A stretch of 25,161 bases of DNA, taken from the IMG/VR virus record IMGVR_UViG_2851938318_000004. The stretch is one strand, 5' to 3'. This DNA is from a virus (Duplodnaviria; Heunggongvirae; Uroviricota; Caudoviricetes). The position numbers and the translations under genes were made by a program. The notes beneath the pieces were generated by a model, which worked only from the letters and a program-made list of their open reading frames with translations, ran no database searches and was not told where the DNA came from. Each line of letters begins with the position of its first letter. Position 1 is the first letter of the stretch. This document shows positions 2,097 through 25,161 of the stretch, one piece after another.

Positions 2097-2987
2097 TCAG
2101 GCTGCCAGATCATCGTTTCCGATGGAAGCATAATAAGCTTTTTCTGCTTCTGCCGGAGGAGTATGGCCCAGCCTTCCCAGCAATCGTCGATTGTTATACC
2201 AGTCCACCCACGTGAGTGTGGCCAGTTCCACTTCTGCACGGTTTTTCCAGCTCTTACGGTGTATTACCTCCGCTTTGTAAAGACCATTGATGCTCTCAGC
2301 CATCGCGTTGTCATACGAGTCGCCTGTACTCCCTGTTGATGCCAGTAATCCGGCTTCTTTTAGTCGCTCCGTATAGGCCAGTGACACATACTGAGAGCCT
2401 TTATCGCTGTGATGGATGGTGCCAGACGGACGACGGGCCCACAACGCCTGCTCCAGCGCATCCAGCACGAATGTCGTTTCCATAGACGATGAGACCCGCC
2501 ACCCCACGATGTATCCGGCAAACACATCAATGATAAACGCCACATAGACGAAGCCCTGCCATGTGCTGACGTAAGTAAAATCAGCCACCCACAGCTGGTC
2601 AGGTCGTTCTGCCACGAACTGACGGTTTACGCGGTCGCCTGCGGCAACGGCTTTCCGGCTGATGGTCGTACGGACCTTTTTACCCCGGAGAACACCGGCA
2701 AGTCCCATAACCGCCATGAGACGTGCCACTGTACATCTGGCCACCCTGATTCCTTCCCGTAACAACTGACGCCAGACTTTACGCACACCGTACACCTGAT
2801 GATTTTCATCGTATACGCGCTGTATCTCTCTCTTCAGCCAGTCGTCGTGCTGCGCACGGGCACTGCGTTTATCCGGATGATGTCGCTGTTGCTGACAATG
2901 GTAATACGTTGACGGGGCAATATGCAGTTCGCTGCATACCGGTCCGACCCCGTACTGCTCACGCAGCTTATCCAGCAGTGGCATCAT
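2097..2987 (-). CDS. IS3-family transposase OrfB (DDE integrase-like catalytic domain), IS629-like
   Basis: 296 aa ORF; 5' end overlaps orfA in the -1 frame. Confidence 0.9.
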
Positions 2988-3310
2988 TTTTTCCAGAGGC
3001 GGTCGAACTCCGCCTTCGCAAAATAAGCGGAAGCCTGGCGAAGGATATCGTTACTGCGGCGCAGTTCACGATTTTCACGTTCCAGCTCTTTCAGACGCTG
3101 ACGTTCAGCGCTGGTGAGCCCACCATCACCGCCCCCGGTATCCCGCTCATGCTGGCGAACCCAGACACGCAGAGTCTCCGGCGTACAGCCAATCTTTGGG
3201 GCAATGGAACAAATTGCCGCCCACTGTGAGTCATATTCATCCTGACTTTCCAGAACCATACGAATCGCCCGCTGACGGACTTCGGGGGAAAAACGAGTAT
3301 TTTTAGTCAT
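2984..3310 (-). CDS. IS3-family transposase OrfA (HTH DNA-binding), IS629-like
   Basis: 108 aa, [26 protein letters not shown]... with C-terminal leucine-zipper-like [21 protein letters not shown]. Confidence 0.9.
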
Positions 3311-6597: not shown

Positions 6598-7272
6598 TCA
6601 GTCTAAGTATTGATGTATTTGTGAAACTTTACCTTTAATGGTGTAACCACCATTCAGTTCGATGGGTTTGTAAAGCGGATTCAGTGACAACAGATAGATG
6701 TTTGGTCCGTCAATCGCAACTTTTTTTAGTGTTACGTTTGGCGTTCCTTCCAATTGGATTAAGATTATTTTTCCCACCAGTTCTCTAATGTTACTTGAGC
6801 ATGGTGTGATCAGCACGGTAGATCCGTCGGGGATGGTTGGGAGGCCGTTAGAGTTTGTCATCGCATCTCCCTCAACATGCAATAAAAAAGAGTTTTCAGC
6901 GGTTTTTGTCATGACATCAACCCAATTCTTAATACCAGGAATCTCGGTTACTGGACAACTCATATCCCAATAACCAGCCTGTTCCCACGTTAAAACGGGC
7001 AACCGGGCGATGTTGTCACTAATGTAAGGGTACTGATTCAGACGCAGATCATCGGCTTTATCGTGACCGTCCTTTCCATAAAGAATCCATTCAGGAGATT
7101 TGGAAAGCAATTTTGACAGTAGATACAAATTCTCACCGTCAGGTTTTGAAGAGCCATTTTCCCATTTTGTTACGGATACACGAGATATGCCGATTGCTTT
7201 CGCAACCTGCTGTTGGGTTAATCCAACGTCTTTTCGACGATTCCGAATACGTTCGCTGATAGTGTTTTTCAT
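6598..7272 (-). CDS. CI-type prophage repressor (N-terminal HTH, C-terminal S24 LexA-like autopeptidase domain), 224 aa from the second in-frame ATG
   Basis: HTH LTQQQVAKAIGISRVSVTKWENG; C-terminal domain with S24-like length and layout. Start at 7272 preferred over 7314 because it leaves a 91-bp operator region before cro. Confidence 0.85.
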   Translation of the reverse strand: MKNTISERIRNRRKDVGLTQQQVAKAIGISRVSVTKWENGSSKPDGENLYLLSKLLSKSPEWILYGKDGHDKADDLRLNQYPYISDNIARLPVLTWEQAGYWDMSCPVTEIPGIKNWVDVMTKTAENSFLLHVEGDAMTNSNGLPTIPDGSTVLITPCSSNIRELVGKIILIQLEGTPNVTLKKVAIDGPNIYLLSLNPLYKPIELNGGYTIKGKVSQIHQYLD

Positions 7273-7334
7273 GTAACCAATGTTACTACCAAGTGATGTT
7301 GCTATGGTTGACATTGTTATGTAACTATTGTTAC
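7273..7334. promoter_or_regulatory. OR-like operator/promoter region: two GTAAC-N4-GTTAC inverted repeats (7273-7286, 7321-7334) flanking a TTGACA hexamer (7308-7313)
   Basis: Inverted repeats read directly from sequence; the first abuts the cI start codon. Confidence 0.5.
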
Positions 7335-7363: not shown

Positions 7364-7579
7364 ATGTTCAAAGATGATGTTCTGCGCTATTTCAAAAAAA
7401 AGCGACTAGTAGCTGAGGCTCTTGGAATTTCACATGTGGCTGTTGTGCGGTGGAAAGCAGTTATTCCCAAACTTCGCGCAATGGAACTGGATGAAATTAC
7501 TAACGGTGAATTGAAATACAACCCAGAACTTTACAAGAAGCAGGATAGCACCTCAAACGAAGGAAAGAATGATTCATGA
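7364..7579 (+). CDS. Cro-like HTH regulator, 71 aa
   Basis: HTH segment KKRLVAEALGISHVAVVRWKAV; divergent from the repressor; AGGAG SD. Confidence 0.75.
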   Translation: MFKDDVLRYFKKKRLVAEALGISHVAVVRWKAVIPKLRAMELDEITNGELKYNPELYKKQDSTSNEGKNDS

Positions 7580-8001
7580 AAATCAAGCATGAACACATCC
7601 GCATGGCGATGAATGTCTGGGCGCATCCGGACGGCGAAAAAGTACCGGCTGCGAAAATTACCAAAGCGTATTTCGAGCTGGGAATGACGTTCCCGGAACT
7701 GTATGACGACAGCCATCCGGAAGCCCTAGCCCGTAATACCCAGAAAATTTTCCGCTGGGTAGAGAAAGACACCCCTGATGCAGTTGAAAAAATTCAGGCG
7801 TTGTTACCAGCGATCGAAAAGGCAATGCCACCTTTGCTGGTGGCCAGAATGCGCAGCCACAGTTCAGCTTATTTTCGGGAGCTGGTGGAGACGCGGGAGC
7901 GACTGGTGAGAGACGCTGATGATTTTGTAGCAGTGGCAATCGCCGGTTTCAATCAGATGAACCGTGGTGGCCCGGCAGGAAATGCTGTGGCAGTTCATTG
8001 A
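7576..8001 (+). CDS. ydaT: YdaT-like protein (CII functional-analogue family), 141 aa
   Basis: Begins MKIKHEHI; sits immediately after cro with an ATGA start/stop overlap, the position of cII. Confidence 0.6.
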   Translation: MKIKHEHIRMAMNVWAHPDGEKVPAAKITKAYFELGMTFPELYDDSHPEALARNTQKIFRWVEKDTPDAVEKIQALLPAIEKAMPPLLVARMRSHSSAYFRELVETRERLVRDADDFVAVAIAGFNQMNRGGPAGNAVAVH

Positions 8002-8072
8002 CTGACAATAGCCATATCGAATCGCTTCCGGCAACTCGTGAGTAAAAAGATTCGGTATCAGAAGAGGTGAGT

Positions 8073-9143
8073 ATGGCTAACGCCTGGCTCAGATTATGGC
8101 ATGACATGCCAAATGACCCTAAGTGGCGAACAATTGCCAGGGTGTCAGGGCAGCCAATTGCAACAGTGATGGCAGTGTATATCCACCTCCTGGTGAGCGC
8201 GTCACGAAATGTCACGCGAGGTCACATTGATGTCACGACAGAAGATTTGGCAAGTGCGCTCGACGTGACAGAAGAGGTAATTGATTCAATTTTGCAGACG
8301 ATGCAGGGGCGGGTACTTGATGGTGATTTAATCACTGGATGGGAAAAACGCCAGGTGCTGAAAGAGGACAACGGCAATATTTCGCAAACCGCAAAATCTC
8401 CGGCAGAGCGCAAGAGGGCGCAGCGAGAGAGGGAAAGAAAGCGGGAACAAAATGGCGATTGTCACGGCGAGTCACGAAATGTCACGCACATGTCACGACG
8501 AGTCACGACAGATAAAGATACAGATAAAGATACAGATCAAGAAGATCAAAACACTATGGTCCATGGCGTAAAAAACGCCACGAACCAGGCAGGGGATGTT
8601 CAGACCGTCAATCCTGGTCAGCCAGCAGGCACGACACCGGAAGCCGATTCAGCGTATGCGCTGAAAGCCGATTCGGGCGCTGTGCAGCAGGTGATGACCG
8701 CAAGGCAGGAGCAATCACACCAACTTCAGCAGCCTGAAGCCGATTCCGCCATTCAGCGGGAAGCCGATCGGGTAGTCCCGGAAAACACCGGTCAGTCTGT
8801 GGGACGAGTGGATTATCCGGATGTGTTCGAACAGGTCTGGCGGGAGTACCCGTTGCGTGCTGGGGCAAACCCGAAGAAATCCGCTTTCAGTGCCTGGAAG
8901 GCCAGATTACGCGAGGGGGTGCCACCAGAGGCCATGCTGGATGGCGTGAGGCGTTACGCAAGATACTTGGCGGCTACCGGGAAAACGGGAACGGAATTTG
9001 TTCAGCGAGCGACGACGTTTTTTGGACCGGACCGGAATTTTGAGAACCCCTGGTTGCTCCCGGTAAGCGGCACGAACAACCAGCGTTGTGTGAATCATAT
9101 TTCTGAACCGGATAACGAAATTCCGCCGGGCTTCAGGGGGTAA
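8073..9143 (+). CDS. Replication initiation protein (lambda O-like role) with the origin iterons embedded in its coding sequence
   Basis: Third gene of the rightward operon; GAGG SD; contains two clusters of 10-11 bp-spaced GTCACG repeats and an AT-rich repeat. Confidence 0.65.
   Translation: MANAWLRLWHDMPNDPKWRTIARVSGQPIATVMAVYIHLLVSASRNVTRGHIDVTTEDLASALDVTEEVIDSILQTMQGRVLDGDLITGWEKRQVLKEDNGNISQTAKSPAERKRAQRERERKREQNGDCHGESRNVTHMSRRVTTDKDTDKDTDQEDQNTMVHGVKNATNQAGDVQTVNPGQPAGTTPEADSAYALKADSGAVQQVMTARQEQSHQLQQPEADSAIQREADRVVPENTGQSVGRVDYPDVFEQVWREYPLRAGANPKKSAFSAWKARLREGVPPEAMLDGVRRYARYLAATGKTGTEFVQRATTFFGPDRNFENPWLLPVSGTNNQRCVNHISEPDNEIPPGFRG
8201..8240 (+). repeat. Iteron cluster 1: four GTCACG/GTCACA motifs at helical-turn spacing (8201, 8211, 8221, 8232)
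   Basis: Read directly from sequence. Confidence 0.5.
8461..8552 (+). repeat. Iteron cluster 2 (five GTCACG at 8461, 8471, 8481, 8492, 8502) followed by AT-rich GATAAAGATACA x2 and two GATC sites: putative replication origin core
   Basis: Read directly from sequence; the layout parallels ori-lambda inside O. Confidence 0.6.
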
Positions 9144-9183
9144 GTGTTAATTTCTGGTCATGAGGTAATTTTCAGGAGGGCTT

Positions 9184-9606
9184 GTGGCAAAAGTTTTTAC
9201 ACAAGAAGAGCGGGAAAAAATTAAAGGGCAGGTTCTTGAACTCGTACGCCAGAGTGGGCGCGAGACGTTACGACAACTGGAAGCTAAAACTGGGGCAACA
9301 AGATATCTGATGAGCGTTCTGGCCAGAGAGCTGGTTGCCAGTGGCGATGTATACAACTCTGGTTACGGGTTATTCCCGTCTGAACAGGCGCGTAAGGACT
9401 GGCAAAATACCCGTAAAAAGCTCTCAAGGGCAAAGCTGAAGAAACCTGCAGTGGTTGATCCGGACCTTATCTGGTCGTTACCAGACGGCGAAATACGCCG
9501 CTACGACAGGCACCAGAACATAATTTGTCGTGAGAGCAGGAGGAGCGAAGTTATGCAGCGTGTGCTGGCGTTCTATCGGGGAAACTTTCAGGAGGTGATG
9601 GAGTGA
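9184..9606 (+). CDS. Hypothetical protein, 140 aa, GTG start, possible winged-helix N-terminus
   Basis: AGGAGG SD before GTG; occupies the position where a helicase loader is expected but has no Walker motifs. Confidence 0.5.
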   Translation: MAKVFTQEEREKIKGQVLELVRQSGRETLRQLEAKTGATRYLMSVLARELVASGDVYNSGYGLFPSEQARKDWQNTRKKLSRAKLKKPAVVDPDLIWSLPDGEIRRYDRHQNIICRESRRSEVMQRVLAFYRGNFQEVME

Positions 9607-9899
9607 GGGTGAGAGTTTATATTGCCGGTCCAATGACGGGATATGAAAATTTCAACCGTGAGGCATTTCACAAGGTGGAAGAGGAACTGAAACGGGAAGG
9701 GCATACCGTCTTAAACCCGGCAGTACTTCCGGACGGGCTGACACAGCCGCACTACATGGATATTTGCATGGCAATGATTCGTTGTGTGGATGCGATTTAC
9801 ATGCTGAATGGCTGGCAGCGGTCAGCGGGCGCTAAGGCAGAGCTGGCACTGGCGGAGAGACTGGGGCATGCGGTGATTTATCAGGAGGTGGCTCAATGA
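9603..9899 (+). CDS. DUF4406 / nucleoside 2-deoxyribosyltransferase-like small protein, 98 aa
   Basis: N-terminal YIAGPMTG motif typical of that fold; AGGAGG SD. Confidence 0.55.
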   Translation: MRVRVYIAGPMTGYENFNREAFHKVEEELKREGHTVLNPAVLPDGLTQPHYMDICMAMIRCVDAIYMLNGWQRSAGAKAELALAERLGHAVIYQEVAQ

Positions 9900-10357
9900 G
9901 AGAGGTTAACTATGAGGCGCTTCGTGAGGCAGCACAAAACTATCAGTCGACGCTGGCGTGGTATCAGGCTACCCCGGACAGCCCAAATGCTGAACGGGAT
10001 TGTGATGCGGCTCTTGCTGCGTTTAAGCGTCATATCCGTCATCGGGAAGCGGATATTATCGCTGGTTTGCTGGATGGACTGGAAGAAGCAAAATCACAAC
10101 TCAACGAGCAGCGTGAGTATTACGAAGGCGTTATCTCTGATGGGAGCAAGCGTATTGCTGAACTGGATGCGCGGGAAGTTCAATTACCGACTCGCTACGA
10201 CCTTCGATATGGACACCCGATAAATGCAGATGAGCGACATGTCATGATACCTAAAGAAAATGGCAGTTGGCTTTACCTGATTGACCTAGAACACGCATTA
10301 CGCGTCGCTGGCATTCGCATCAAAGGAGAGGAGCATGGAAATAAAACCAGAAGATGA
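9896..10357 (+). CDS. Hypothetical protein, 153 aa
   Basis: ATGA overlap with the upstream gene; AGGAGG SD. Confidence 0.55.
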   Translation: MREVNYEALREAAQNYQSTLAWYQATPDSPNAERDCDAALAAFKRHIRHREADIIAGLLDGLEEAKSQLNEQREYYEGVISDGSKRIAELDAREVQLPTRYDLRYGHPINADERHVMIPKENGSWLYLIDLEHALRVAGIRIKGEEHGNKTRR

Positions 10358-10691
10358 GTTAAGCAATATCGTTTTATTTCCGGTAAAAGAGGATGACCCT
10401 CGTAATCAGGTTAATTTTCTTTATGAGCCATCGGAAAGACCATATTGTCATCACGCCTCTGTCCGGGTTGACGAAAAAGAGCGTCAGGTCCGCTGTAAAA
10501 TCTGCGGTGCAGTTGTGGAGCCATTTGACTGGATGCTCTCTGTGGCGAAAAGAGAAACTAGGCTGGCAGATGATGTAAAGCTATTGCGCCAGGAGGAACA
10601 GGAAAGGCGGAAAAATATAGAAAAGTTAATTCAGATTGAGCGTAACGCGAAAGCGCGGATACGCAGGGTGACAAAATCCAGAACTGAATAA
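10335..10691 (+). CDS. Hypothetical protein with Cys/His zinc-ribbon-like motif (CHH ... CKIC), 118 aa
   Basis: AGGAGAGGAG SD; basic C-terminus. Confidence 0.55.
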   Translation: MEIKPEDELSNIVLFPVKEDDPRNQVNFLYEPSERPYCHHASVRVDEKERQVRCKICGAVVEPFDWMLSVAKRETRLADDVKLLRQEEQERRKNIEKLIQIERNAKARIRRVTKSRTE

Positions 10692-10741
10692 ATAAATTTA
10701 GCGCTGTAAATAAAATCTAATCCTTAACTGGAGGTGTATTT

Positions 10742-10954
10742 ATGTTAAATACACAGAAAGCCATTAATGCGGAAAAATATAACGAGTGGGCAAGAAAATT
10801 CTCTGAGCAGATTTTTAAAATTACTGGCGATGAGAATGCGGCAAAAAATGAATTAGAACCGTGGACGCCTGAAGGAGCCGACCCAAATTATTGCTGGAGG
10901 GAGGTTGATCCAGTTGATGCTGCAAATGAAGCTATGAGTTATCACAACGATTAA
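10742..10954 (+). CDS. Hypothetical protein, 70 aa
   Basis: GGAGG SD; followed by a GC hairpin (CCGCCC-GAAA-GGGCGG) near 10961-10980. Confidence 0.5.
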   Translation: MLNTQKAINAEKYNEWARKFSEQIFKITGDENAAKNELEPWTPEGADPNYCWREVDPVDAANEAMSYHND

Positions 10955-11205
10955 TGTCAGGAGGCCGCCCGAAAGGGCGGTAATGAATGGTCACATTATT
11001 TAGAAAAAATATCCGCGAAAGAGTAGAACAACAGAATTTCTGTTTCTCATTCTGTTTATCGTGTTGATGATACCGATATCCCCGTTAATCCTAGTCTGGA
11101 TAATCGGAAAAATAATTGAGCCAGTTATTGAATTGTATAACGACGTGGTATGGGCGTCATTCAACACACTGCACAATAAAATTAATCCGTATAAGGAAAA
11201 CTGAT

Positions 11206-12970: not shown

Positions 12971-13039
12971 GAGACCCGGCGGGGGAGAAATCCCTCGCCA
13001 CCTCTGATGAATCAGGCATCCTCAACGCACCCGCACTTA

Positions 13040-13065
13040 ACCCGCTTCGGCGGGTTTTGTTTTTT
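13040..13065 (+). terminator. Intrinsic terminator after hok
   Basis: CCCGC-TTCG-GCGGG followed by TTTTGTTTTTT. Confidence 0.6.
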
Positions 13066-24838: not shown

Positions 24839-25161
24839 TTTTTCCAGAGGCGGTCGAACTCCGCCTTCGCAAAATAAGCGGAAGCCTGGCGAAGGATATC
24901 GTTACTGCGGCGCAGTTCACGATTTTCACGTTCCAGCTCTTTCAGACGCTGACGTTCAGCGCTGGTGAGCCCACCATCACCGCCCCCGGTATCCCGCTCA
25001 TGCTGGCGAACCCAGACACGCAGAGTCTCCGGCGTACAGCCAATCTTTGGGGCAATGGAACAAATTGCCGCCCACTGTGAGTCATATTCATCCTGACTTT
25101 CCAGAACCATACGAATCGCCCGCTGACGGACTTCGGGGGAAAAACGAGTATTTTTAGTCAT
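24835..25161 (-). CDS. IS3-family transposase OrfA (IS629-like), copy 2; start codon is the last three bases of the window
   Basis: Protein identical to the copy 1 OrfA. Confidence 0.9.

Follow-up and report, generated by a model that had tools for sequence, protein, structure and literature searches.

The window analysed here, the whole stretch of 25,161 nucleotides of the IMG/VR record IMGVR_UViG_2851938318_000004, carries on its plus strand five small, closely packed genes, designated g1 to g5 (Table 1), and differs at a single position from NC_013364.1, Escherichia coli O111:H- 11128, across 24,954 compared positions. The gene order runs from a cI-like repressor through cro, a YdaT/cII-like gene and the replication gene to g1–g5, and then through DUF968 and RusA to Q. 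The five genes thus sit downstream of the replication initiator and upstream of the Q antiterminator—the position held by lambda ren and the nin genes—so that the placement proposed in an earlier note on this DNA, after the initiator and where lambda has its nin genes, is borne out. The initiator gene itself contains GTCACG iterons in 10-nt phase (8201-8239 and 8461-8509), and the annotation places no rexAB-like genes beside the prophage repressor.

Table 1. Positions in the window of the five genes, their SD sites and the flanking features.
Feature	Position	Strand	Description
Replication initiator	8067..9143	+	Upstream anchor of the block; phrog_3729, 2.4e-257
g1 SD	9174-9179	+	AGGAGG, 4 nt ahead of GTG
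g1	9184-9606	+	GTG start, 140 aa; Ren-family, DUF977 (LygF/YdaW elsewhere)
g2 SD	9590-9595	+	AGGAGG, 7 nt ahead of start
g2	9603-9899	+	GTG start, 98 aa; DUF4406
g3 SD	9883-9888	+	AGGAGG, 7 nt ahead of start
g3	9896-10357	+	ATG start, 153 aa; Ead/Ea22-family
g4 SD	10323-10328	+	AAGGAG, 6 nt ahead of start
g4	10335-10691	+	ATG start, 118 aa; Zn-ribbon and long helix
g5 SD	10730-10735	+	GGAGGT, 6 nt ahead of start
g5	10742-10954	+	ATG start, 70 aa; acidic, pI 4.5
Hairpin	10964..10981	+	GC-rich, GCCGCCC-GAAA-GGGCGGT; directly 3′ of g5; read from sequence

The same five coding sequences, with the same starts, were called by RefSeq (PGAP) in NC_013364.1, in agreement with the open reading frames, SD sites and start/stop overlaps that the earlier note had described and that we read again from the sequence. 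The start of g1 lies 40 nt downstream of the initiator stop codon; g1 and g2 have GTGA in common (a 4-nt overlap) and g2 and g3 have ATGA in common. An overlap of 23 nt joins g3 to g4, the last 16 codons of g3 covering the ribosome-binding site and start of g4, and a 50-nt gap precedes g5. Given strong matches to profile families and the purifying selection indicated by dN/dS in allele comparisons (g2, g3, g4 and g5), these are genuine genes and not chance open reading frames. A scan of NCBIfam returned no match for any of g1–g5, PADLOC defence-system models gave none at E ≤ 0.01, searches of PDB chain sequences with g1–g5 and with a g2 alignment gave chance-level matches only, and a literature search found no mention of the five RefSeq protein accessions. 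The earlier note had called all five genes of unknown function, a description that stands in so far as no housekeeping phage function could be assigned to any of them from Pfam, PHROG, NCBIfam, PADLOC or PDB searches, so that the outcome it had named as telling against its reading was not found. The description falls for g1 and g3, which profile and BLASTP comparisons relate to lambda Ren and Ea22.

The Pfam DUF977 model is covered by g1 from end to end (model positions 1-134 of 134; 3.1e-29; 102.2 bits, cut-off 22.1). Both g1 (1.3e-45) and lambda Ren (1.6e-41) match phrog_142, and hhalign of the g1 allele alignment (A4) against Ren aligned Ren residues 5-93 with 95.6% probability (E=1e-8). 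On these profile comparisons, g1 is a homologue of lambda Ren. Allele comparison divides it into a variable N-terminal part, a basic linker of ~30 aa and an invariant C-terminal motif, LPDGEIRRY..NIIC.E..S..MQRVLAFY; at position 118, the allele in the window has Ser and at least 90% of alleles have Cys. Lambda Ren reportedly has a role in escape from Rex exclusion, a result ascribed to Toothman and Herskowitz in 1980. Ren has also been reported to interact with the Rex proteins (bioRxiv 10.1101/2021.04.19.439022), and an overexpression screen identified ydaW as a blocker of the retron-Sen2 toxin RcaT (bioRxiv 10.1101/2020.06.22.160242).

It is conceivable, though rather unlikely, that g1, possibly together with g4, is no accessory gene but an auxiliary replication factor replacing the missing lambda P- or DnaC-type helicase loader. 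Between the initiator and g1 there is no gene resembling P or DnaC, and g1-type genes follow replication modules unlike the one in the window. Moreover, Ren has been described as ‘likely involved in DNA replication’ and interacts with O in a two-hybrid assay (bioRxiv 10.1101/2021.04.19.439022), while the variable N-terminal part of g1, in a family described as a winged helix (PMC2686095), is what would be expected of recognition of a replicon-specific partner. However, Ren-like genes also follow complete O-P modules, in lambda and in Enterobacter prophages, and so do not replace P. The initiator itself has a C-terminal DnaD/DnaT-like domain, as judged from DnaD-like/primosomal matches to its C-terminus in the PHROG search and from the similarity of its last 24 aa to the DnaT C-terminus, and g4 is found next to Q, far from replication genes.

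For g2, the earlier assignment to DUF4406 was correct, with a match to Pfam model positions 2-91 of 91 (5e-37; 126.5 bits, cut-off 22). Its structural model (pLDDT 91) has the flavodoxin-like fold of the nucleoside-deoxyribosyltransferase (NDT) superfamily, the best matches being a DUF1937 protein, MilB and deoxyribosyltransferases; as modelled, g2 is a minimal version of that fold and is predicted to be a nucleotide N-glycosidase or a nucleotide-binding protein. Residues S74 and E80, invariant in 44 homologues, have the spacing of the Ser/Glu motif of DNPH1, a match by topology and spacing only, and, as an hhalign comparison of the DUF4406 alignment with human DNPH1 returned nothing meaningful, we can only infer that the two pairs correspond. 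In the deposited DNPH1 structure 8qhq, Gln replaces the Glu of the SLGVGYELG motif, which fits a catalytic role for that Glu. The pattern S-x-G-x-x-x-E occurs also in MilB.

The name that PHROG gives, ‘nucleoside 2-deoxyribosyltransferase’, is not to be taken at face value. As a bona fide NDT (PF05014), g2 scores 14.8 bits against a cut-off of 28.8 and ends at residue 98, after the fourth strand. A C-terminal segment in NDT and in Rcl completes the active site of the neighbouring subunit; as g2 is without that segment, its role could be binding and not catalysis. Some viral proteins of the same fold are annotated with a dATP/dGTP diphosphohydrolase domain, and g2 cross-matched a PHROG annotated as MazG-like pyrophosphatase. 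Allele comparison gave a dN/dS of 0.08-0.21. Three papers were found to mention DUF4406, each only as an annotation, and a search for deoxyribosyltransferases with an anti-defence or lambdoid link returned nothing pertinent; the one related item deals with the PF05014 NDTs of diaminopurine phages, which are a different family.

The third gene matches the Pfam family Ead_Ea22 (PF13935; 6.2e-11; 43.5 bits, cut-off 27), and BLASTP aligned its residues 1-108 with lambda Ea22 at 40% identity (E=6e-17). A short N-terminal domain is followed by a coiled coil and a C-terminal domain (~109-153), and a sequence search of all PDB chains with g3 found no match. As far as these alignments reach, g3 belongs to the Ea22 family and ends in a different C-terminal domain; the architecture of the family is modular and its C-terminal domain varies (PMC10834534); Ea22 itself is pro-lysogenic and tetrameric (PMC7093339, PMC10834534). 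Mosaic breakpoints fall within g3, and its dN/dS was 0.19-0.7 on few substitutions. The MucB/RseB name given to g3 in RefSeq rests on 23.3 bits (cut-off 22.3) over 51 of 178 model positions, at residues 65-116, and this RseB-domain name is very probably spurious, a borderline match on the Ea22 coiled coil.

In g4, which matches phrog_1621 (1.4e-55), the Cys/His zinc ribbon recognised in the earlier note was confirmed: the ligands C38, H40, C54 and C57 vary little or not at all, and the ribbon is followed by a single long, extremely conserved basic helix (LR.EE..RR.NIEKLIQIERNAKARIR). An AlphaFold2 model (pLDDT 76) places the ribbon strands at ~43-61 and the helix at 63-117. Foldseek comparison of the model with the PDB found nothing at E ≤ 0.001, the best match being a TFIIB ribbon at E=0.35, and the Pfam TFIIB zinc ribbon (PF08271) scored 21.5 bits with a cut-off of 29. 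The family is large, with 1,664 clusters at E ≤ 1e-3, and a Pfam scan of 47 divergent relatives assigned no family. A genome-wide scan for relatives with a single peptide pattern yielded 12 loci. Allele comparison gave a dN/dS of 0.00-0.07. The last gene, g5, belongs to a narrow family (phrog_4659; 3.4e-50), has a dN/dS of 0.13-0.20 in allele comparison and has no PDB relative by sequence search. The hairpin listed in Table 1 separates an AGGAGG from the start of DUF4014, the next gene, and accompanies g5 in 10 of 11 distinct downstream contexts in which the following genes differ.

The prophage is defective, with a frameshifted integrase and an exonuclease gene split by IS1203, and the genes may never be used in their O111 host; the DUF4014 gene that follows g5 is frameshifted as well. 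We nevertheless think it improbable that the block here is now functionless, an inert leftover of a prophage in decay. These three lesions, and the Ser of g1 at a nearly invariant Cys position, would suit such a remnant. Against it, all five frames are intact and their families are under purifying selection, evidence that bears on the families and not necessarily on this copy.

How the five genes travel was assessed in a sample made up of the closest 80 loci per anchor, the counts from which are for that reason biased towards Escherichia prophages. All five genes were present in 8 of 63 non-redundant loci anchored on g4 and in 4 of 47 anchored on g2. Among the g4-anchored loci, g2 occurred in 22/63 and g5 in 24/63, and g1 abutted g4 without g2 or g3 in 31/63; a functional tie between g4 and g1, considered on account of this last figure, was rejected, as in other genera g4 lies beside Q, after NinG, RusA or DUF968 genes. 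In 38 of the g2-anchored loci, a g1 allele <70% identical to that of the window stood beside a g2 that was 94-97% identical. BLAST found no phage record that covered at least 80% of the block, and the pieces that it did find broke at the g2/g3 border and within g3. Elsewhere, the Stx2a phage ArgO145 carries an Ea22-like gene, g4 and g5 together beside recombination genes; in Edwardsiella, DUF4406 is found among ea-type genes (RdgC, Ead_Ea22, Eai) adjoining an integrase gene; in Enterobacter, DUF4406 lies downstream of O, P and a Ren-like gene; and in Kluyvera, Erwinia, Photorhabdus and Pantoea, homologues of g4 directly precede Q genes, which belong to two unrelated Pfam families. Comparison of these sequences demonstrates at least three cassettes exchanged independently by recombination: g1; g2 with the 5′ half of g3; and the 3′ end of g3 with g4, with or without g5.

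These loci also bear on the strong form of the idea in the earlier note, a single co-functional operon for host takeover or anti-defence in which all five products act jointly; we regard this as very improbable. Translation of g1–g4 is tightly coupled, in-frame fusions of an Ea22 N-terminus to g4 occur naturally, if rarely, and the complete block is 100% identical in O111 and related genomes; among complete E. coli genomes, at least 80% of the block is present in 215 and some part of it in 4,360 of 5,426. Yet all five occur together in just the few related loci counted above, each gene is seen with other neighbours and in other genome regions, and most of the identical copies are from O111 strains, whose common descent may explain them. 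The tight coupling seen in the window is no sign of a single functional block, for the genes assort independently in related loci. Equally improbable is lysogenic conversion, with the genes as ‘morons’ expressed from the repressed prophage to the benefit of the host: PHROG files the Ren family under ‘moron, auxiliary metabolic gene and host takeover’ and the genes are kept in a defective prophage, but they form part of the early lytic operon, with which their translation is coupled, and have no promoter-like site of their own or flanking terminator by consensus scan.

The block is an ordinary mosaic accessory region in the early operon of a lambda-like E. coli prophage, drawn from catalogued families, and its five small genes are genuine, separately exchangeable and already catalogued; it is not a new five-part system. 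The explanation that we favour, and consider probable as a whole, is that a defective lambda/Rac-like prophage is integrated beside yccA in E. coli O111 and that the five genes stand at the proximal end of the accessory (‘ren-nin’) stretch of its early rightward operon. After loss of the repressor, they would be transcribed jointly with the replication gene from the cro-side early promoter, and their translation would be coupled through overlapping or close start sites. The consensus scan found no promoter-like or terminator-like site on the plus strand from the start of cro (7364) to 12500, and a good terminator-like hairpin at 13039-13056.

Within this accessory region, g1 would be a Ren-type protein that acts, by analogy, at or with the replication module and that, like lambda Ren, may shield the replicating phage from Rex-type abortive-infection systems. 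As a minimal NDT-fold enzyme with the S-x-G-x-x-x-E pattern of 5′-phosphate-specific N-glycosidases such as DNPH1/Rcl, g2 would most likely cleave or bind a (deoxy)nucleoside 5′-monophosphate-like nucleotide and so alter the nucleotide pool. The product of g3 would be an Ea22-like coiled-coil scaffold bearing an alternative C-terminal domain, Ea22 itself favouring lysogeny. That of g4 is probably an oligomeric adaptor of zinc ribbon and helix that binds a conserved host or phage target, possibly the transcription apparatus, and that of g5 may be a small acidic binding protein.

The block may serve host takeover or anti-defence, as the earlier note suggested. Pointers towards anti-defence are limited to lambda Ren with its link to Rex exclusion and to the blocking of a retron toxin by ydaW, which are only hints. 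We put forward tentatively, as less probable than its opposite, that at least one cassette encodes an uncharacterised counter-defence or host-takeover factor, the candidates being g4, g2 and g1. The first comes from a family of some 1,600 clusters that Pfam lacks; it lies directly upstream of Q in distant genera, and purifying selection on it is very strong. It might have the transcription machinery as its binding target. The second could act on a molecule derived from nucleotides, breaking it down or tying it up; a dNMP, an NAD-derived immune signal and the substrate of an NDT-type retron toxin are examples. The third is, by analogy, a candidate for neutralising abortive-infection toxins in general, Rex and the retron toxin RcaT among them.

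As it stands, the finding is a minor one: this is a typical mosaic lambdoid accessory region in which every gene falls in a catalogued family, and dozens of genomes already have identical copies of the block in their annotation. It is useful in that it points to four families: Ren/DUF977, DUF4406, the g4 zinc ribbon and g5. Parts of the block are carried by ~80% of complete E. coli genomes. Proteins of the Ren type and of the NDT fold are reasonable candidates for interference with abortive infection or nucleotide-based immunity, and the g4 family stands out as large, highly constrained and absent from Pfam.

Among known systems, the closest to g1 are lambda ren (Ren, 96 aa) and ydaW/lygF of Rac, which occupy the same place, first after the replication genes and overlapping or abutting them; lambda has the order O-P-ren, and in Enterobacter prophages a wHTH protein follows O and P, in a position like that of g1. 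The DNA of Rac lygF is ~87% identical to g1, and lambda Ren shares with g1 the C-terminal motif ..ECR.S..M.RVLA.Y. In contrast to Ren, g1 is 140 aa long, a basic insertion of ~30 residues separating its N-terminal domain from the C-terminal motif, and Ren, unlike g1, falls below the Pfam DUF977 model.

The structure nearest to the g2 model is 1t1j, an uncharacterised DUF1937 protein. Compared with DNPH1/Rcl (a 2′-deoxynucleoside 5′-phosphate N-hydrolase), MilB (a CMP/hydroxymethyl-CMP hydrolase) and the NDTs, g2 is only 98 aa long and has no C-terminal extension. Lambda Ea22 and g3 share the N-terminal domain and a nearly identical coiled-coil core (AKS.LNEQREYYEGVISDGSKRIA); the alignment stops at residue 108, and the C-terminal domain of g3 (~109-153) is unrelated to the Ea22 C-terminal domain solved by NMR. 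Their genes also differ in location, that of g3 lying in the rightward nin-type region and lambda ea22 between exo and xis.

When all five proteins were compared by BLASTP with the lambda nin, exo-xis and replication proteins, only g1 with Ren and g3 with Ea22 gave matches; g2, g4 and g5 have no relative among the lambda nin or exo-xis proteins. Like the lambda nin region, the block lies between replication and Q, and, like the nin and exo-xis regions, it consists of small, packed, coupled, non-essential-looking genes that are swapped as cassettes among lambdoid phages.

The five small plus-strand ORFs that follow the replication initiator (g1 to g5) are, on the sequence evidence, genuine genes, and nothing about them is new at the family level: all five fall in catalogued families and their exact sequences are in RefSeq. 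The lengths and start codons given in the earlier note were confirmed from the sequence and are the same in the RefSeq calls. Each gene has a strong profile-family match and allele comparisons gave values of purifying selection for g2, g4 and g5 (dN/dS 0.08-0.21, 0.00-0.07 and 0.13-0.20, respectively), those for g4 indicating strong constraint; g3 gave 0.19-0.7 from few substitutions. The tight coupling and SD sites described in that note are present too: g1 and g2 overlap by GTGA, g2 and g3 by ATGA and g3 and g4 by 23 nt, a 50-nt gap precedes g5, and an AGGAGG-like site lies 4-7 nt 5′ of every start.

Features of the five-gene region and its surroundings (positions on the whole stretch)
Feature	Position	Strand or order	Source
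IS3-family element, first copy	2097-3310		
LexA-type repressor	6598-7314	-	NC_013364.1 annotation
cro-like	7364-7579	early rightward order	NC_013364.1 annotation
YdaT/cII-like	7576-8001	early rightward order	NC_013364.1 annotation
Replication initiator, 358 aa	8067-9143	early rightward order	NC_013364.1 annotation
GTCACG repeats, 4 copies	8201-8239		
GTCACG repeats, 5 copies	8461-8509		
Initiator residues 339-358 (last 20)	9081-9143		
g1 RBS context	9164-9179		
g1, 140 aa	9184-9606	+	
g1 codon 118	9535-9537		
g2 RBS context	9580-9595		
g2, 98 aa	9603-9899	+	
g3 RBS context	9880-9888		
g3, 153 aa	9896-10357	+	
g4, 118 aa	10335-10691	+	
g5, 70 aa	10742-10954	+	
GC-rich hairpin	10964-10981		
DUF551 ORF, 289 aa	11480-12349		
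Terminator-like hairpin	13039-13056		
IS3-family element, second copy	23948-25161		

Immediately 3′ of the replication genes, in the position of lambda ren, g1 has hits to Pfam DUF977 (3e-29) and to the ‘Ren-like exclusion protein’ family, PHROG 142 (1e-45); its counterpart is named LygF in phage records and the Rac lygF DNA is ~87% identical. Lambda Ren (from NC_001416) matches PHROG 142 as well (2e-41), and a profile built from 12 diverse g1 alleles aligned with Ren residues 5-93, nearly all of that protein (95.6% probability, E=1e-8). From the shared family match and this alignment, g1 is Ren plus a basic insertion of ~30 residues. The variable part among g1 alleles is N-terminal and DUF977 has been described as a winged helix (PMC2686095), while the C-terminal motif LPDGEIRRY..NIIC.E..S..MQRVLAFY is invariant among alleles and is the part common with Ren. 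At codon 118 the window encodes Ser, the residue being Cys in at least 90% of compared alleles (NIICRECR to NIICRESR), a substitution within the best-conserved stretch of g1. Toothman and Herskowitz reportedly found in 1980 that Ren allows lambda to escape Rex exclusion. A likely role in replication and two-hybrid interaction with Rex proteins have also been described for Ren (bioRxiv 10.1101/2021.04.19.439022), and an overexpression screen identified the Rac copy, ydaW, as blocking RcaT, the toxin of retron-Sen2 (bioRxiv 10.1101/2020.06.22.160242). That g1 is a replication auxiliary is plausible and compatible with the Ren reading; as a substitute for P, however, it is opposed by complete O-P modules, which also have Ren-like genes after them, so g1 does not replace P.

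Within the initiator gene itself, GTCACG is repeated in two groups phased at 10-11 nt; these resemble origin iterons lying inside the gene for the initiator, an arrangement shared with lambda O. Of the initiator protein, only the last 20 residues are conserved (90-95% identity) immediately 5′ of g1 in many loci with otherwise different replication genes (e.g. L136-L140, L160). This tail also resembles the C-terminal end of DnaT, a primosomal protein (NCBIfam, E=7e-4), and may be either a functional peptide at the C-terminus or a junction left by recombination.

For g2, the DUF4406 assignment made earlier holds (5e-37), the family appearing in the literature only as annotation mentions. All 44 homologues compared, which come from many Enterobacterales and from Vibrio, keep Y6, G9, N18, R19, D53, S74, G76 and E80 unchanged. 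In a confident AlphaFold2 model (pLDDT 91.2), S74-x-G-x-x-x-E80 falls in the loop past the third strand and in the beginning of the helix there; DNPH1 has the motif S-L-G-V-G-Y-E with equal spacing, and exactly this Glu is replaced by Gln in a mutant among the deposited DNPH1 structures, although the two proteins gave no sequence-level alignment. Nucleoside 2-deoxyribosyltransferases proper have Asp at the Ser position, binding the 5′-OH. The g2 score is under the Pfam threshold for that family, its subunit of only 98 aa is without the C-terminal active-site segment, and the PHROG 355 label ‘nucleoside 2-deoxyribosyltransferase’ should not be taken literally. Two viral structure models with the g2 fold carry an annotation for a dATP/dGTP diphosphohydrolase domain and g2 cross-matches a PHROG annotated as MazG-like pyrophosphatase, which would fit a pathway from dNTP via dNMP to the base. 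From the S74/E80 motif, the likeness to DNPH1 and these annotations, we predict that g2 is a nucleotide 5′-monophosphate N-glycosidase or binder.

Matches to Pfam Ead_Ea22 (6e-11) and to lambda Ea22 (40% identity over residues 1-108, E=6e-17, with a near-identical coiled-coil core) place g3, as judged from its sequence, in the Ea22 family. Ea22 is a tetrameric coiled-coil, pro-lysogeny protein with a variable C-terminal domain (PMC7093339, PMC10834534); past residue 108, g3 diverges from it and bears a different domain of ~45 residues, for which a sequence search found no solved relative. The RefSeq name of g3 (WP_001209481.1), ‘sigma-E factor regulatory protein RseB domain-containing protein’, is very probably spurious, because the positions matched in a borderline Pfam hit (23.3 vs 22.3 bits; 51/178 model positions) fall on the Ea22-type coiled coil.

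The g4 protein matches PHROG 1621 (1e-55, function unknown) and reaches no Pfam family, nor did any of 47 divergent relatives scanned (0/47). Close homologues occur only in Enterobacterales prophages; a profile search against 50%-identity representatives returned 1,664 clusters at E<=1e-3, 277 of them at E<=1e-10. C38, H40, C54 and C57 are invariant and a basic helix, LR.EE..RR.NIEKLIQIERNAKARIR, nearly so. The model (pLDDT 76, with low confidence of ~56-60 over residues 1-40) comprises a small ribbon and a single helix (residues 63-117), with no significant match among structures. Directly 5′ of Q in Kluyvera, Erwinia, Photorhabdus and Pantoea there is a g4 homologue, itself preceded by NinG, RusA or DUF968, the Q genes falling into PF06323 and PF06530, Pfam families that are unrelated to each other. 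Counted over the six distant loci from these genera (L166-L172), the g4 homologue was the last gene before Q in five, a conserved adjacency that the window lacks. Rare database proteins (P0124, P0128; also P0135, P0161) include in-frame fusions of the Ea22 N-terminus and coiled coil to whole g4, and others of g4 with DUF1133 or DUF977 sequence. Such fusions may be products of recombination at cassette borders; those with Ea22 hint that g4 might act as an Ea22-type C-terminal module.

Acidic g5 (pI 4.5) matches PHROG 4659 (3e-50) and showed no similarity beyond it. Directly 3′ lies a GC-rich hairpin, GCCGCCC-GAAA-GGGCGGT, with a GAAA loop, placed between AGGAGG and the following start codon. 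Of 11 distinct contexts 3′ of g5, 10 retain the hairpin despite a different following gene; it may serve in RNA stability or processing, bridge the SD site and the start codon, or mark a cassette boundary.

The region spanning g1 to g5 matches E. coli O111:H- 11128 (NC_013364.1) and many O111 or related genomes at 100% identity, and the window differs from NC_013364.1 at one of 24,954 overlapping positions. There it is annotated as a lambdoid prophage integrated beside yccA, the order 3′ of the initiator being g1-g5, further small genes, hokD, DUF968, RusA and Q. The prophage is defective, since its integrase is annotated as frameshifted and its exonuclease gene is split by the first copy of IS1203. 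The two copies of this IS3-family element (IS1203 in RefSeq) differ by one mismatch in 1,214 compared bases. Further 3′, an intact ORF whose C-terminal domain is DUF551 (Pfam 7e-19; phrog_60 6.5e-60) has identical copies in several IMG/VR loci; RefSeq has for its NC_013364.1 equivalent only two partial pseudogene fragments and a 62-aa DUF551 CDS. It is possible that the window's copies of g1-g5 are inert remnants in a defective prophage, but the gene families are under selection.

A consensus scan found no plus-strand promoter-like or terminator-like site from the start of the cro gene to 12500, and a good terminator-like hairpin beyond. This is compatible with, without proving, co-transcription of g1-g5 with the replication gene, and, as the scan showed no separate promoter for them, it speaks against their being morons expressed in the lysogen. 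On repressor inactivation, the five genes would share a transcript with the replication gene and have coupled translation, and each product would then act independently. The RBS contexts of g1 and g2 share 88% identity over a 16-nt repeat ending TTTCAGGAGG and that of g3 carries TATCAGGAGG; these repeated linkers could offer short homologies for cassette exchange.

The earlier note had treated g1-g5 as one block. We took the 80 closest IMG/VR loci each for g2 and g4, mapped all five proteins and counted non-redundant loci with enough flanking DNA: all five were present in only 8 of 63 g4-anchored and 4 of 47 g2-anchored loci, and the block is not a unit. Around g4 we found g1 in 54 loci (abutting g4 in 31), g2 in 22, full g3 in 12 and g5 in 24; around g2, g1 in 46, full g3 in 41, g4 in 43 and g5 in 8. 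The g1 allele was <70% identical in 38 of those 46, adjoining g2 alleles 94-97% identical to the window's. No phage record covered >=80% of the block, BLAST pieces stopping at the g2/g3 border and inside g3; among 5,426 complete E. coli genomes, 215 held >=80% of it and 4,360 some part. Stx2a phage ArgO145 has an Ea22-like gene, g4 and g5 beside RecT, exonuclease and SSB genes, with the 23-nt overlap kept; in Edwardsiella, DUF4406 sits amid RdgC, Ead, Eai and exonuclease, adjoining integrase; and in Enterobacter, O, P and a Ren-like gene are followed by DUF4406, then an Ea22-like gene and NinB/E/G-Q. From the broken matches, co-occurrence and other-genome contexts taken together, there are roughly three units of inheritance: g1; g2 with 5′ sequence of g3; and g4 with the 3′ end of g3, with or without g5. 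A single five-protein system is contradicted by the co-occurrence data.

Two of the five genes that the earlier note listed as of unknown function, g1 and g3, are related to lambda genes with some functional data. Ren/DUF977, DUF4406, the g4 family and g5 abound in E. coli; that one cassette encodes a new counter-defence or takeover factor, as had been proposed, we consider rather unlikely. Tight coupling such as this is how lambdoid early accessory regions are usually packed, and the arrangement is that of a standard mosaic ren/nin/ea-type region.
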